64,000 nucleotides of DNA from an uncultured bacterium (GTDB lineage Bacteria; Babelota; Babeliae; Babelales; Vermiphilaceae): positions 96,001 to 160,000 of the forward strand of contig OY968764.1 in the NCBI GenBank assembly GCA_963695335.1, given 5' to 3'. The translations under genes and the position numbers were made by a program. This document shows, one piece after another, positions 44,914 through 50,095 of this stretch. The notes under the pieces were generated by a model. That model had not been told where the DNA came from. It made no database searches and was given only the letters and a program-made list of their open reading frames with translations. How positions within the stretch are numbered: the stretch's first letter is position 1; each line of letters opens with the position of its first letter.

Positions 44914-45501
44914 ATGGAACAAACACCACCAGTACCACAAATAGTCATCACACAACCTGCTAAAACTAAGCACAATACAGTAAGCCGACAACAGATATTA
45001 GACACAGTAACAAAACACAAACATGAACATAACAATCAAATAAAAGAGATAAAAAAAATTATCTTTCAATCTACTAATCTTCTAAATGAGCAAGAAGAAG
45101 CTATTCTAAAGCAACAAGAAATAACTACAAAACATGAAAAATTAATTGATGGACTCAACTCAGAACAAATAAAACTTGATATGTCAATTTTAATGCTCGC
45201 TGAGACTGGCACAAGCTTACAAGAAAAATTAGAAAATAATGAAAAAATCACTCAATTATTATGCAAAGCTCGCGGCGATATTGAAACTGAATTTATCGCA
45301 CTCAAAAAAATAACCTCAAACCTAGAAACCAAAATAAGCAACAACGAAGAACAAATTTCATCGCTGCACAGAGAACTGATCCTACAAAATACGCTTCATG
45401 AAATCGAAGCGCAAGAACTCAAAACTACGGTTGAAAAACAAAAGCAGGCAATGTTCAACTTAACAGCGCTCATCTTACTATGGTACTATTCCAAAAAATG
45501 A
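44914..45501 (+). CDS. Coiled-coil protein with hydrophobic C-terminus
   Basis: Long heptad region ending FNLTALILLWYYSKK. Confidence 0.7.
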   Translation: MEQTPPVPQIVITQPAKTKHNTVSRQQILDTVTKHKHEHNNQIKEIKKIIFQSTNLLNEQEEAILKQQEITTKHEKLIDGLNSEQIKLDMSILMLAETGTSLQEKLENNEKITQLLCKARGDIETEFIALKKITSNLETKISNNEEQISSLHRELILQNTLHEIEAQELKTTVEKQKQAMFNLTALILLWYYSKK

Positions 45502-45505
45502 AATA

Positions 45506-46168
45506 TCACAAGTTAGATTCTTTAATCGCATCTAAATAAATATCAATACTATATTCAACTGCAGAAATGATAACTGCATAAAACTGATCAAAATCATCCG
45601 TTTGCCGTGCATGTTCAATTGCATCAATATATGCAGAACGCTGTTCTTTTTGAATAATTGCCAACGGATATCCCTGCTGTAACAGTAATAAATTCATCAA
45701 CAAACGGGCTGTTTTAACATTGTAAATTGTTGCCAATTTATAATGCGCCAGCGCTGCAATAATCACTGGATGATCTGTGACGGAATTTAACCATTGTATA
45801 AAAATAATAAGATCCAAAGATGGATCTATTTTTTCTGAACTGTATTTGTAAAGAGCACAAACGTCTTCAACAGAAATAGCATTTTGGCTACGTACAAGCG
45901 TTGCAATAAATTTCATTGCTCGCGCACAATCAATAAGTTCAATATGTTCTTGTAATGTTTTACCACCAATAGCAATGCCCTTTTCAACAACAATAGCTGT
46001 TTCCATATGGGATAGGCTATTGCCTTCAAGGGCATTTGTTTCATAAATAAAATTTATCGTAAGCCATTCTTGCAAATTTTTTTCTAATTCTGGCGGCAGA
46101 GGACGTACTGCATCTAATTGTTTCTTTTTTTCATCAATACGTTTGAGGGATTCTTGTATATTTTCCAT
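45506..46168 (-). CDS. Fic-family protein lacking the catalytic loop
   Basis: RPLP, ETNALEGNSL, IGGKTLQEH, AHYKLATI-YNVK-TARLLMN..GYP. Confidence 0.8.
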   Translation of the reverse strand: MENIQESLKRIDEKKKQLDAVRPLPPELEKNLQEWLTINFIYETNALEGNSLSHMETAIVVEKGIAIGGKTLQEHIELIDCARAMKFIATLVRSQNAISVEDVCALYKYSSEKIDPSLDLIIFIQWLNSVTDHPVIIAALAHYKLATIYNVKTARLLMNLLLLQQGYPLAIIQKEQRSAYIDAIEHARQTDDFDQFYAVIISAVEYSIDIYLDAIKESNL

Positions 46169-46243: not shown

Positions 46244-47395
46244 TGTCTAGGTTCAGAAACATATGAGACTAAAAAAAATAAAATCTTAAAGTAATAGATT
46301 AGAATTTAATACAATAGGGCCAGCCATAAAAATATCAAATTTAGGAGGCCCTATTATGATGCAGACGAGTATTCTGCAAAAACGACTATATCACATTAAT
46401 GCAGTAGATGAAACAGACTATTCCAAAATTGTATACGAACGCAGAGATAAGCTTGATAAAATGGTACTTTTGCTCAGTGAAGGATGCTCAGAAAGCGCGG
46501 CCTTAGAAGCTATCAATATCCCTCGTTCAACATATTATCGATGGAAGCGAAACTACAGATTATTTGGACTTGCCGGACTGGAAGATGAAAGCAGACGTCC
46601 CACTCATAGGCGTAAGCCAAATTGGTCAAAAGAAATTGAATTACGAGTATATGATTTACGTAAAAAATATCCTTTATGGGGCAAGCAAAAACTTGCCGTT
46701 ATGTATCAACGAAAATACAACATTAAAATATCGCAAAGCATGATTGGAAGAATACTTTCGAAATTATTGAAGCGTGGAAAAATTACACGAGTAAAAGTAC
46801 TTCTTTATGGAAAAAACGAAACAAAAAAACGTATTTTTGATAACCATGCCCAGCGATGGAAACATGGCATGAAAGCGCGACAAGCTGGTGAATTAGTTCA
46901 GATAGACCATATGACGGTAAATATTCCAGGATTTGGATATCTTAAACACTTTAGTGCGACTTGCCCTACCACAAAATACACTGCTTATCAGGTTTATCAG
47001 GAGGCGACAAGTAAAAATGCTGCCGATTTTCTTGAGCATATCAAACAGGAATTGCCTTTTCCGATCCGGTCAATCCAAGTGGATGGAGGAGCCGAATTTA
47101 TGGCATATTTTGAAAATGCCTGTAAAAAAGCCAAGATTCCCCTTTTTGTGCTACCTCCTCGATGCCCCGAACTTAATGGGAACGTCGAAAGAAATAATGG
47201 TACTGCAAAATATGAGTTTTATGCTCAATACAACGCATTTCCCAACTTTTATACAATTAGGCAAAATCTACAAAAATTTGGTTTATTCTACAATTTTGAG
47301 CGCCCTCACCAAGGAATAGGGCTTTTGACACCCAGTCAATTTTGCGAGAAAATAAATATAAGGCCCTGAAGTCTCATATGTACTGAACCAGGACA
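46244..47395 (+). mobile_element. IS481-family insertion sequence
   Basis: TIRs TGTCTAGGTTCAGAAACATATGAGACT / AGTCTCATATGTACTGAACCAGGACA; 5-bp target duplication CGCTT at 46239-46243 and 47396-47400. Confidence 0.9.
46356..47369 (+). CDS. IS481-family transposase (rve integrase core)
   Basis: STYYRW HTH, SRRP, WGKQKL, VQIDH, IQVDGGAEF, NGNVER, YNFERPH. Confidence 0.92.
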   Translation: MMQTSILQKRLYHINAVDETDYSKIVYERRDKLDKMVLLLSEGCSESAALEAINIPRSTYYRWKRNYRLFGLAGLEDESRRPTHRRKPNWSKEIELRVYDLRKKYPLWGKQKLAVMYQRKYNIKISQSMIGRILSKLLKRGKITRVKVLLYGKNETKKRIFDNHAQRWKHGMKARQAGELVQIDHMTVNIPGFGYLKHFSATCPTTKYTAYQVYQEATSKNAADFLEHIKQELPFPIRSIQVDGGAEFMAYFENACKKAKIPLFVLPPRCPELNGNVERNNGTAKYEFYAQYNAFPNFYTIRQNLQKFGLFYNFERPHQGIGLLTPSQFCEKINIRP

Positions 47396-47499
47396 CGCTT
47401 TTGACAAACTGAATTGTTTTTCGTAATATTATAGTAATAATCATAGTTTTATACATTATATCAATATTTCTATTATTTTTACCAAAAGGGACAATTCTT

Positions 47500-49059
47500 A
47501 TGAAAAAATATCAATTATATCACGTTTTAACGCTCTTAGTGGGCCTACAAGGTCCTATCGCTATCTTAGCTGAAGAAAGCTTCAATCTCCCTAAGCTAAC
47601 TGTTAACGTCCATTTGGATAACTTAGATAACTTAAGTGAAGCTATTGGAGATGGCACTAAAGATATTATCAAAGAAGTTGTTACAAGTGTTGCTGAAGGT
47701 ATTGCACAAGCAGGAACAGATAAATCTTTTGGCAAAAACTTAAAAGAAGGTCTTACTGGCATAACACATCAAACTGCCGATGCCTTTAAAGATGCAATGA
47801 ATGACAAACATATCGGAGATTCTCTTAGAGAAGGTCTTACAACTGGTGCTACACAAGCAACAGATGCTTTCAAAGATGCAATGAACGATCCAAATCTAAA
47901 AAATAGTATTAAAGATGGTGCTGATGCTTGGGCATCTAATGTCGGACAAGCAGCACAAGGAGCACAGCAAGGTCTTGAAAGAGAAGTTTGGCCATCTGTA
48001 ACAAAAATGAGTAATCAAGGTATTGCTTCAATTTTTAATCTACAAAACGCTATGCAAATAGTCGGACCATATGCATTTGGTGCCGTAGTCTCTATATCTG
48101 CAACATATGGAACAAAATTAGCATGGCAACTTCTTGAGAAAAAACTCTTAAATCCAAAACCAACAATTTTATTGCCAGGCGCAAAAGTTGGTCGCTGGGA
48201 TAGAGTAAGCCGTTGGAGATCTGGATACCAATCGCCTGCAATGATTTTTGATGAACAAGTTAAAGATCGTCTTATAGAAATTGAAGAAAAAACAAAAAAT
48301 ATTCGTGATCATATTTATAACGGTAAAAAAGCAACCTATGATAACTTGCTTCTTTACGGTAAACCAGGTACGGGTAAAACATTATTTGCACAAATCTTAG
48401 CAGATAAAACTAACATGGATTTCTTGCCTGTTACTGCAGGTTCATTATTGCAATCTGGTGTTGAAGGTATTAAATACGTCAACGAACTTGTTGATATAGC
48501 TAATAATAGTAGATATGGCGCAATTATTTTTGTTGATGAAGCCGATGCTCTCTTTGTAAATAGAGACAGCCTTGACCCTTCATCTGACCATTACAAAGTA
48601 CTCAACCACATCTTGGCTCTCACTGGTAATGGTAGCAATAAATTTATGTTAATTGCTGCAACAAACCACGCATACGTAATGGATGAAGCAATGGGTCGTC
48701 GTTTTCAAGACCGTGTATTAATGCCATTGCCGAACACAACAACACGTAAAGAACTATTCGATCTTTATAATAATAATGTTCTATTTAATACAAAAAATAA
48801 TGGCACAGAATTTGTTAAAACAGCTAAATCATTACTAACGCCACAACAGATCAATACCTTGGTAGAACAAACAGAAGGTTTATCACACGCTGAAATAAAA
48901 GATGCTGTGCATGCAATGCATAAAAAAGCGCTTGCAACCAAGACAGGCATCATCACTATGACACACATTAACAATGCTATTAAACAAGCTATTGAAAAAC
49001 GTGAAGCACTTGAAGCTGATAAACAAGAGCGTGAACAACATCACAAAGTAATCGCTTAA
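47500..49059 (+). CDS. AAA+ ATPase, ATAD3-like, with signal peptide and TM segment
   Basis: [43 protein letters not shown]. Confidence 0.8.
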   Translation: [519 protein letters not shown]

Positions 49060-49077
49060 TATTTTATACATAATAAA

Positions 49078-49123
49078 AGAAAAAGGTTTGCAGACCAATC
49101 ATGGCTTGCAAACCTTTTTCTTT
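49078..49123. terminator. Bidirectional terminator
   Basis: AAAAGGTTTGCA..TGCAAACCTTTT between convergent genes. Confidence 0.7.
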
Positions 49124-49153
49124 TATTAAATTTTACTCTTTAAATATCACCTA

Positions 49154-49969
49154 TCACGCTGCTGCATAAAATTTTTGGTACAAAACATATGCGATAATTC
49201 CAACAATTGAAGCGCCAAACAATTTTTTGATTCGAGAATAAAACAAAGCCGTTTTGATTGCTTTGTAATCTTGTCTTATTTCTTCTTTTACTTCTTTTCC
49301 AAAGTACCCATTAATTCCTTGAGCATATTCCTGCAAGTGCTCTTTGTGTGTACCAGCTTCACGTAACTCTCTTTTACATATAATACCAGCGTCGCACAGC
49401 TCTTTTTCAAGATCTTTGGTAGGCACAATTGTTAGTACTACACTACCCTCATTCTCTATATGTCCTGGTTCACAGCATGGCATTTCTTTAAATTGATTTA
49501 AAAAAACTTGAGGATCCATCTTATCAAAGCTCGTATTTAGTTGAATTTTAAACCCATTTTCCATACCTTCGAATTGCTTTGAACAAGATAAGAGTTCATC
49601 ATGACGCTCCTTAAAAGAAACATTTGATTTTCGTGGATCAATATTGTCTTTCATAAAATATCTATAAGGAACCAATGTAATAGGATCAAGAAATTTTTGT
49701 AAACTCTGTTCTTCTTCTGATGCCCATCTACTCTTTTCTCCTCGAGTCCACTGATAATATATCATTAAAAAAGGCTCATTCTGTTGACATTGTATGCCAT
49801 ACTCATTGTTCAAAAAATCGATATATTTTTTATCACAATACCGCAATGGATTATAAGTTAATCGGCCAACATGAGCATCAAAAATAACAATTTCATCATT
49901 TTTTTCACTACCAAAAACTTGTCCAACACAACCACTCAACACAAGCAACTTCAACAACACGTTTTTCAT
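49154..49969 (-). CDS. Hypothetical exported protein with C-terminal TM helix
   Basis: Signal peptide ending QVFG-SEK; LFGASIVGIIAYVLY. Confidence 0.72.
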   Translation of the reverse strand: MKNVLLKLLVLSGCVGQVFGSEKNDEIVIFDAHVGRLTYNPLRYCDKKYIDFLNNEYGIQCQQNEPFLMIYYQWTRGEKSRWASEEEQSLQKFLDPITLVPYRYFMKDNIDPRKSNVSFKERHDELLSCSKQFEGMENGFKIQLNTSFDKMDPQVFLNQFKEMPCCEPGHIENEGSVVLTIVPTKDLEKELCDAGIICKRELREAGTHKEHLQEYAQGINGYFGKEVKEEIRQDYKAIKTALFYSRIKKLFGASIVGIIAYVLYQKFYAAA

Positions 49970-50095
49970 AATTTTTATCCCCATCGAATACACAAATTGT
50001 AATAGATCATAATACAATCATATCCTGACAAACAAATTTGAGCAACTCAGCTATTTTCATTTACAACAACAATCTTTTTCCTGTATTCTTAAACC

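Follow-up and report, generated by a model that had tools for sequence, protein, structure and literature searches.

We analysed a stretch of DNA of 64,000 nucleotides (the window) from the genome of an uncultured, protist-associated bacterium of the Vermiphilaceae (phylum Dependentiae). The open reading frame (ORF) at 47500..49059 (+) very probably encodes a specific relative of ATAD3, the kinship running through the module made up of the transmembrane (TM) segment and the AAA motor. ATAD3 is an AAA+ protein of the mitochondrial inner membrane, found at contacts between the inner and outer membranes, with its motor in the matrix and its N-terminus towards the outer membrane; it is essential in animals and is mutated in human neurological disease, and to our knowledge its molecular mechanism and origin are still unclear. 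The bacterial gene is an intact ORF of 519 codons with an ATG start, encoding 519 amino acids (aa), and its classification as an ATAD3-like membrane AAA+ ATPase draws on the reading frame itself, Pfam, sequence searches, alignment and trees. It lies at C1:143500-145056 of a single-contig genome of 1,366,684 bp, in which it is present as a single copy. All elements that a preliminary description of the DNA had named were found in the protein, which with its relatives represents a bacterial line of ATAD3-type proteins that differs in its N-terminal part.

A reference set of ATAD3 proteins was fetched by a search limited to proteins longer than 567 aa, from which carriers of PF12037 (the ATAD3_N domain) were taken, including P0270, P0297 and P0315. 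Many of these are labelled ATAD3 by their source, and the set includes fishes, insects, nematodes and the stramenopile Hondaea; a second search added ATAD3 from the alveolates Perkinsus, Vitrella, Toxoplasma and Noctiluca. In a BLASTP search of a database of 5.8 billion sequences, ATAD3 matches scored 100-121 bits (E=1.5e-29 to 4e-23), with 28-34% identity across 72-98% of the 324-residue query. Judged from these alignments, the similarity between the window protein and ATAD3 is far above chance. Per-domain bit scores were determined with phmmer using residues 236-505 of the window protein as the query. ATAD3 of animals, Hondaea and others scored 95-119 bits and ATAD3 of five alveolates 71-100 bits, compared to 54.6 bits for the FtsH of the window's own genome, 52-61 for PAN, 56-61 for CdvC and 39-52 for Cdc48 domains. 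The ATAD3 scores of 95-119 bits are about twice those of any other AAA family scored. The reciprocal search, in which the ATAD3 modules of P0270 and P0297 served as queries, gave 123 and 110 bits for the window protein, 192 and 206 bits for the best bacterial relative (a 666-aa ORF of locus L090), and only 30-48 bits for FtsH, PAN, CdvC and Cdc48. When P0270 was compared with the chains of the PDB, the best whole-chain score was 85 bits, for a two-domain Cdc48, and the lone single-domain chain among the 60 listed was i-AAA, at 54.7 bits. Among the Atlas matches to the window protein, clusters bearing PF12037 stood at ranks 3, 5 and 10, and automatic annotation already hints at the ATAD3 link.

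The preliminary description had claimed that the homology to ATAD3 reaches beyond the Walker motifs, and this was borne out by an alignment that is colinear from the TM segment through the C-terminus, with 25 invariant columns among seven bacterial and seven eukaryotic sequences. It had also pointed to a TM segment followed by an ATAD3-like juxtamembrane motif, and both elements are present. The TM segment (residues 187-212; 48058..48135 (+)), identified by hydropathy, by a helix in the AlphaFold2 (AF2) model and by alignment, is aligned with the TM segment of ATAD3. The juxtamembrane motif (residues 212-221; 48133..48162 (+)) aligns as a degenerate form of the ATAD3 (R/K)YIEARLGKPSLVRETSR, reading LNPKP where ATAD3 has LGKPSLVRETSR, and the proline of its KP motif (P221) is invariant in all 14 aligned sequences (14/14). 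The ATAD3 motifs quoted in the preliminary description were seen in the fetched ATAD3 proteins, the juxtamembrane motif of P0270 being RYIEARLGKPSLVRDTSR. Sister bacterial subfamilies retain GKPSLVRESSR or GKPRLVQETS, and the motif of the L090 ORF, RYIEAKMGKPSLVRESSR, matches that of P0270 near letter for letter. Because the window protein carries the LNPKP motif and has lower ATAD3 scores than the sister subfamilies, its subfamily appears to be a more derived branch.

The motor itself carries the residues expected of an ATPase. The AAA alpha/beta domain (PF00004, Pfam E=4e-23; residues 283-409; 48346..48726 (+)) contains the Walker A motif GKPGTGKT (residues 287-294; 48358..48381 (+)) and the Walker B motif IIFVDEAD (residues 342-349; 48523..48546 (+)), both assigned by family conservation, as well as the stretch from sensor 1, ATN(389)HA, to the arginine finger region GRRFQD (residues 387-404; 48658..48711 (+)), assigned by alignment. 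It is followed by a helical lid and C-terminal helix (residues 413-519; 48736..49056 (+); AF2 helices 413-478 and 487-518), which aligns with the ATAD3 lid. The classical AAA set of Walker A, Walker B, sensor-1 Asn, arginine finger and helical lid is complete. Across 40 family sequences, G287, G290, G292 and K293 of Walker A and D346 are invariant, and E347, N389 and R401 are at least 90% conserved. Because these ATPase residues are conserved, an active hexameric AAA ring is expected. In the AF2 model, built from a 40-sequence alignment, residues from about 230 to 510, the AAA domain included, have a predicted local distance difference test score (pLDDT) above 90, with values of 96-98 in the lid, and a Foldseek search of the PDB gave a probability of 1.00 to many AAA structures.

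Alignment with the outgroup families also revealed features shared with ATAD3. The aromatic residue of pore loop 1 is absent, the loop reading LQSG in the window protein and PLG in ATAD3, as against K/V[FWY]xG in FtsH, PAN, CdvC and Cdc48. LNxFLxxTGxxSxK follows Walker B in ATAD3 as well as in the bacterial family, its place being taken by LLxE(M/L)DG in the outgroups. The RPGRF form of the arginine finger is present in FtsH, PAN and Cdc48, and is absent from the CdvC outgroup and from the ATAD3-like rows, the window protein included, in which the region is of a single-turn type that lacks PG. The absence of the pore-loop aromatic, as in ATAD3, suggests a scaffolding or remodelling motor rather than a threading unfoldase.

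Phylogenetic trees were built from the AAA-plus-lid module cut from all sequences, with outgroups from the window's genome and three archaeal genomes. Two quick trees contained 79 and 95 rows. A more careful tree was computed with IQ-TREE from 58 rows and 272 columns under the LG+C20+F+G4 model, with ultrafast bootstrap and the Shimodaira-Hasegawa-like approximate likelihood ratio test (SH-aLRT). This tree took 16 of the 39 rows labelled 'BAC' and five of the eight labelled 'DEP'; three 'MID' rows (two long-branched and one duplicate), two ATAD3 rows and six outgroup rows were left out, and the very long L003 row along with seven other outgroup rows had been removed after the first tree. Its 16 outgroup rows comprised the genome's own FtsH, three PAN, three CdvC, Cdc48 D1 and D2, and others. 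The ATAD3 sampling covered only animals and alveolates, besides one stramenopile and two unnamed sequences. The 42 ATAD3-like rows (22 of the window family, eight other bacterial and 12 eukaryotic ATAD3) were split from the 16 outgroup rows with support of 100/100, and the quick trees repeated this split with SH-aLRT values of 98 and 100. An AAA+ phylogeny that included ATAD3 and FtsH, proposed in the preliminary description as a check, thus placed the protein in the ATAD3 clade and not with the generic AAA families sampled.

Within the ATAD3-like clade, the 12 eukaryotic ATAD3 rows were monophyletic (100/99) and the 22 rows of the window family had a support of 96/91, while seven other bacterial rows grouped on the side of ATAD3 at a support of only 69/87. 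A tree constrained to hold the 30 bacterial rows in a single clade was 3.0 log-likelihood units worse and was not rejected by the approximately unbiased (AU) test (p=0.179), a result compatible with either order of branching and hence with transfer in either direction. The suggestion that the gene is a host-derived homolog is not borne out so far: the bacterial rows are not nested within the sampled eukaryotic ATAD3, the diversity within the phylum is deep, and the AU test does not separate a sister position from a nested one. Since ATAD3_N is absent and the eukaryotic sequences form a clade of their own, the window protein is also not an ATAD3 orthologue with the full architecture.

The same data bear on the identity of the protein as a generic bacterial AAA ATPase, for example a protease-less FtsH-like chaperone or an IteA-like defence ATPase. 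Pfam gives PF00004 only, which would fit such an identity, as would the NCBIfam results, in which 23 families were matched and the best was the anti-phage ATPase IteA (NF042959) at 87.3 bits; the IteA cut-off is however 510 bits, and none of the 23 families reached its cut-off. Foldseek against the PDB returned generic classical AAA folds, with no ATAD3 entry among the matches listed; because it matches all classical AAA folds about equally, a fold search cannot separate the families. The trees, the reciprocal scores and the shared derived motifs point instead to ATAD3, the TM and juxtamembrane segments share in the homology, which is not confined to the AAA domain, and an M41 protease domain is absent. 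A generic identity is largely refuted by the ATAD3 clade at 100/100, the reciprocal scores and the shared motifs, and we regard it as highly improbable.

The part of the protein that precedes the TM segment is of a different character. Residues 1-24 (47500..47571 (+)) form a signal-peptide-like segment or uncleaved N-terminal anchor by hydropathy heuristics: heuristic inspection found an MKK start, a hydrophobic core of 15-17 residues and I-L-A ahead of EE, and Kyte-Doolittle hydropathy reaches 1.72 in a 19-residue window and 2.02 in a 12-residue window. The segment would fit a cleavable signal peptide, and an uncleaved anchor is equally possible. Residues 25-186 (47572..48057 (+)) make up a helical, fast-evolving N-domain, predicted to be periplasmic and characterized by AF2, BLAST and profile searches; it was modelled as helical with a pLDDT of about 34-67 per 10-residue block. 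The N-domain contains a 21-residue unit in two copies with a period of 28, at residues 82-102 (47743..47805 (+)) and 110-130 (47827..47889 (+)). Of the N-terminal features in the preliminary description, the repeated helix was therefore confirmed, and the signal peptide stands as a heuristic likeness.

Sequence conservation differs sharply between the two halves of the protein. When residues 25-180 were used in BLAST, 33 of 119 close relatives were matched with a median identity of 27%, compared to 119 of 119 with a median identity of 63% for the C-terminal module, the latter indicating purifying selection. A fast N-domain suits a part that may face the envelope or the host. Against Pfam at E<=1, all matches of the N-domain were below threshold (NNH2 scored 15.8 bits against a cut-off of 27), and its search of the Atlas gave no usable match. 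PF12037 was not found at E<=0.01 in the 519-aa protein, nor at E<=0.01 across the window's whole genome in a search that had no positive control, and it was found at E<=1e-10 in none of 87 relatives (0/87). An hhalign comparison of 51 N-domains of the family with 18 ATAD3 N regions gave a probability of 0.3%, similar to the 0.2% of the reversed control.

We also examined the predicted membrane topology. An N-terminal hydrophobic segment was found in 144 of 210 full-length family members and in none of ten ATAD3 proteins, and a pre-AAA hydrophobic segment (>=1.2) in 169 of the 210. The TM segment of the window protein has a maximal 19-residue hydropathy of 1.26, compared to 0.87-1.69 at the equivalent place in ten ATAD3 proteins, and a single long AF2 helix (residues 181-217) spans it. 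Lysine and arginine residues (K+R) were counted over a length of 20 residues to either side of the TM segment. The window protein has one on the N-side and four on the C-side; a C-side excess was present in 150 of 211 family members, with equal counts in 24, and in 16 of 18 ATAD3 proteins. Because of this positive-inside pattern and the hydropathy, we place the motor in the cytoplasm: the protein probably has an N-out/C-in orientation, with its ATPase in the bacterial cytoplasm and its N-domain in the periplasm. This predicted orientation would be the bacterial equivalent of that of ATAD3, the cytoplasm corresponding to the matrix and the periplasm to the intermembrane space.

On balance we favour, with more conviction than doubt, the interpretation that the protein is an ATAD3-grouping AAA+ ATPase of the bacterial inner membrane with a cytoplasmic motor and a periplasmic N-domain, likely a hexameric envelope organiser and not a threading unfoldase. 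The protein would probably reside in the inner membrane of the bacterium itself and not be delivered to the host. The AAA module would act as an ATP-driven hexamer in the cytoplasm, where ATP is available, hexamers being usual among AAA proteins. The helical N-domain would lie in the periplasm and contact the periplasm or the outer membrane, and the motor would serve in scaffolding or remodelling of the envelope instead of threading a substrate. The role as an envelope organiser is a far less secure element than the orientation.

To determine how widely the gene occurs, its relatives were surveyed across the phylum. Named relatives are from Dependentiae, Babeliales or TM6 metagenome-assembled genomes (MAGs); among 20 representatives, organism names were attached to two clusters, both Candidatus Dependentiae. 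All of the genomes with a match at E<=1e-30 belong to one order. Outside the phylum, members were seen only as long-branched sequences, from an Oligoflexales MAG and a record titled Gammaproteobacteria. The family is found mostly in Dependentiae, where it is patchy, multi-copy and divided into several deep subfamilies. On viral contigs, relatives are encoded in 141 of 601 candidate stretches; the best has 34% identity over residues 248-423 only, and none of them is close. These viral matches are generic AAA genes, many on contigs of giant-virus MAGs, and a viral route of transfer is accordingly without support. Guanine-plus-cytosine content near the gene is 0.34-0.37, inside the range of 0.31-0.40 across the window, and so gives no sign of a recent foreign origin.

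Several observations weigh against the interpretation as an envelope organiser of the ATAD3 type. The trees were built without Bcs1, Msp1/ATAD1 and katanin, which are eukaryote-only AAA clades. The K+R bias is reversed in 37 of the 211 members, and the hydrophobicity of the TM segment, at 1.26, is no more than moderate, so that stop-transfer is not assured. The organiser role is argued by analogy with ATAD3, which is itself poorly defined in mechanism. The family is patchy, with a match at E<=1e-30 in 49 of the 201 genomes surveyed from the phylum (43 of the 177 of high quality) and, G000 aside, in six of nine genomes of the genus to which the window belongs; tandem copies are frequent, with for example three in G160; and an in-frame stop was found in two of 57 matched places. 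Patchiness, variation in copy number and a fast N-domain would be no less in keeping with an accessory gene that faces the host.

A host-facing role is developed most fully in the possibility that the protein is an effector, exported by the Sec pathway, released (for example in outer-membrane vesicles) and inserted in host mitochondria, where it would mimic or interfere with ATAD3 and remodel the organelle. The signal-peptide-like N-terminus and the moderate hydrophobicity of the TM segment are compatible with export, and a patchy, multi-copy family with a fast N-domain is what is often seen in effector families. There is also precedent in the phylum: the consulted sections of a report on Chromulinavorax destructans (Dependentiae) describe a putative signal peptide on 44% of its coding sequences, apparent shedding of outer-membrane vesicles, and replication inside invaginations of the host mitochondrion (PMC6561590). 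Signal peptides so common in the phylum mean that a single one says little, however, and the positive-inside pattern (150/211 members; 1 vs 4 in the window protein) places the AAA side in the cytoplasm. The TM segment and juxtamembrane motif are conserved in the family and with ATAD3, as expected of a true membrane anchor, and the surroundings of the gene showed no targeting signal for host organelles, no secretion-system gene and no chaperone. The idea in the preliminary description that the protein manipulates host mitochondria thus gained no direct support, and we consider an effector unlikely.

The immediate surroundings of the gene bear on whether it is still in use. An insertion sequence (IS) element of 1150 bp (46245-47394) ends 106 bp upstream of the start codon; it is bounded by imperfect terminal inverted repeats, GTCTAGGTTCAG... 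and ...CTGAACCAGGAC, and by a 7-bp target duplication, ACGCTTT, and carries a transposase ORF (46356-47369, 337 aa; Pfam HTH_32 and rve_3). The element is missing from the syntenic locus L007 of a relative, and the insertion lies directly ahead of a -35-like TTGACA, a hexamer kept whole because of the target-site duplication. This hexamer belongs to a promoter-like sequence at 47401..47429 (+), consisting of TTGACA, a 17-nt spacer and TAATAT (10/12 consensus), 71 bp before the start codon. The region contains eight promoter-like sites compared to a mean of 7.2 in shuffled sequences, which makes the match by itself weak evidence; L007 retains the stretch. Downstream, a long perfect hairpin (49071..49128; -32.2 kcal/mol) lies between convergent genes and is terminator-like on both strands; its z score is -9.6, none of 200 shuffles folded as well (0/200), and it was missed by a consensus scanner.

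If the gene were a decaying or dispensable accessory without a current role, an IS element close upstream, the presence of the family in only 49 of 201 genomes, and in-frame stops in relatives could all be accounted for. The two stops are a TAA in a 90% identical copy from the same genus (G006:C4:5072-6037) and a TAG in a more distant copy (G013:C1:597699-598619); gene decay or assembly error is a possible explanation for both. The window ORF itself is nevertheless intact with complete catalytic residues, the -35/-10-like site survives behind the IS element through the target-site duplication, and the C-terminal module keeps its median identity of 63% in all 119 close relatives. We consider current decay of this gene to be quite improbable.

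The order of genes common to the window and L007 is c5, c6, c3(-), AAA, c7(-) and priA. The AAA gene appears to stand alone: in the uninterrupted L007 locus its upstream neighbour lies on the other strand, and the gene downstream runs towards it. BLASTP clustering, a method that does not cover remote homology among upstream ORFs, found no upstream gene family common to more than four of 25 loci, and family searches of the neighbours recognised no outer-membrane barrel beside the gene. At three loci (the window, L007 and L008) the c3 gene lies on the strand opposite to the AAA gene, as its conserved divergent neighbour; in the window it is a 220-aa ORF at 45506-46168 (-), the sole family hint being Fic/DOC at E=0.25, with a Fic motif region that looks degenerate by eye. 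The c7 gene is a 287-aa ORF at 49154-50017 (-) with a hydrophobic N-terminus, a hydrophobic C-terminal tail and no family match; it is present once in the window and as three tandem paralogues in L007 (4631-7124). The c6 gene, a 195-aa ORF at 44914-45501 (+) that is kept in L007, has a coiled-coil look and a hydrophobic C-terminal tail (…LTALILLWYYSKK), and gave a sub-threshold Filament match only. Elsewhere in the same genome are a 456-aa AAA protein with PF00004 only (L003 940-2307 (-)) and an 851-aa protein with AAA and Peptidase_M41 domains, a long second FtsH-like protein (L006 346-2898 (+)), both with a signal-peptide-like start, as well as the ordinary FtsH of 610 aa (L002).

Genome G205 (L090, L084, L087 and L042), of 1.4 Mb and titled 'uncultured Pseudomonadota', has seven matches to the window module at E<=1e-15, and six of its ORFs examined from four loci were all in the ATAD3-like clade. 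Among these is the L090 ORF of 666 aa (GKPSLVRESSR), which has the highest ATAD3 score among the bacterial sequences examined (192-206 bits). Records L009, L018 and L023 have coordinates identical to those of G021, G070 and G105, which are assigned to the genus, order and family of the window's genome; they are third-party annotation (TPA) assemblies titled 'uncultured Pseudomonadota', a label that is probably wrong. L011 and L013, titled Candidatus Dependentiae bacterium AWTP1-30, likewise match the coordinates of G200, a genome of the window's family.

The kinship also raises a tentative scenario for the origin of ATAD3 itself. An intracellular bacterium resembling the Dependentiae may have been the donor of ATAD3, prior to the last eukaryotic common ancestor, with the TM-AAA module already an envelope-spanning motor, and ATAD3_N would then have replaced the signal peptide and N-domain. 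The deep bacterial subfamilies, the seven bacterial rows on the ATAD3 side (69/87) and the near-identical juxtamembrane motif are compatible with a bacterial origin of ATAD3, though on present data we hold this scenario to be possible rather than likely. Full-text searches of the available literature brought up no description of bacterial relatives of ATAD3. The sections consulted of one article place ATAD3 in animals, plants and protists, with no orthologue known in yeast (PMC3790746). In those of a 2026 Plasmodium paper, only eukaryotic 'ATAD3-like proteins' are used, with AFG3-like outgroups. ATAD3 is reported to be essential in Plasmodium. A bacterial sister family would provide an outgroup for sorting ancestral from derived features of ATAD3, and a concrete case in which gene exchange between early eukaryotes and bacteria that depend on protists could be tested. 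As a small, intron-free module it is also a candidate for expression, structural and ATPase work. The gain from the window gene alone is modest, as it is one member of a derived branch.

The protein was also compared with known systems. Msp1/ATAD1 and Bcs1 are single-AAA proteins anchored by one TM segment, and their structures are present in the PDB; neither was among the best 60 of the 271 PDB matches of the window protein. FtsH resembles the window protein in its predicted topology, in which a hydrophobic N-terminus and a periplasmic domain precede the TM segment and an AAA domain of the classical fold lies in the cytoplasm. It differs in its M41 protease domain (PF01434), its aromatic pore loop (FVG), its RPGRF sequence, its score of only 54.6 bits and its position on the outgroup side of the tree, and the window protein scores 66.2 bits against TIGR01241, for which the cut-off is 600. 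Closer are the other ATAD3-like bacterial subfamilies, represented by the L090 (666-aa), L084 (496-aa), L044 (498-aa, from a TM6 MAG) and L085 (416-aa, from the Oligoflexales MAG) ORFs. These share a signal-like N-terminus, a variable N-domain, the TM segment and the AAA module, and form one superclade with the window protein; they differ in their near-ATAD3 motif and in scoring 192-206 bits to ATAD3, compared to 110-123 for the window protein. ATAD3 itself, which occurs as ATAD3A/B in animals and also in plants and apicomplexans, differs from the window protein in carrying ATAD3_N (PF12037) besides PF00004, in lacking the N-terminal signal-like segment, and in length, the single-gene ATAD3 proteins fetched having 570-634 aa compared to 519 aa. 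The window protein is moreover bacterial, of a patchy and often multi-copy family, and lies outside the eukaryotic clade (100/99). The two are nevertheless alike in the colinear order of TM segment, KP motif, linker, AAA domain and lid, and in the motor, with no pore-loop-1 aromatic, TGxxSxK after Walker B and no RPGRF form. They are alike too in TM hydrophobicity, in charge bias and in their predicted orientation to the energised membrane.

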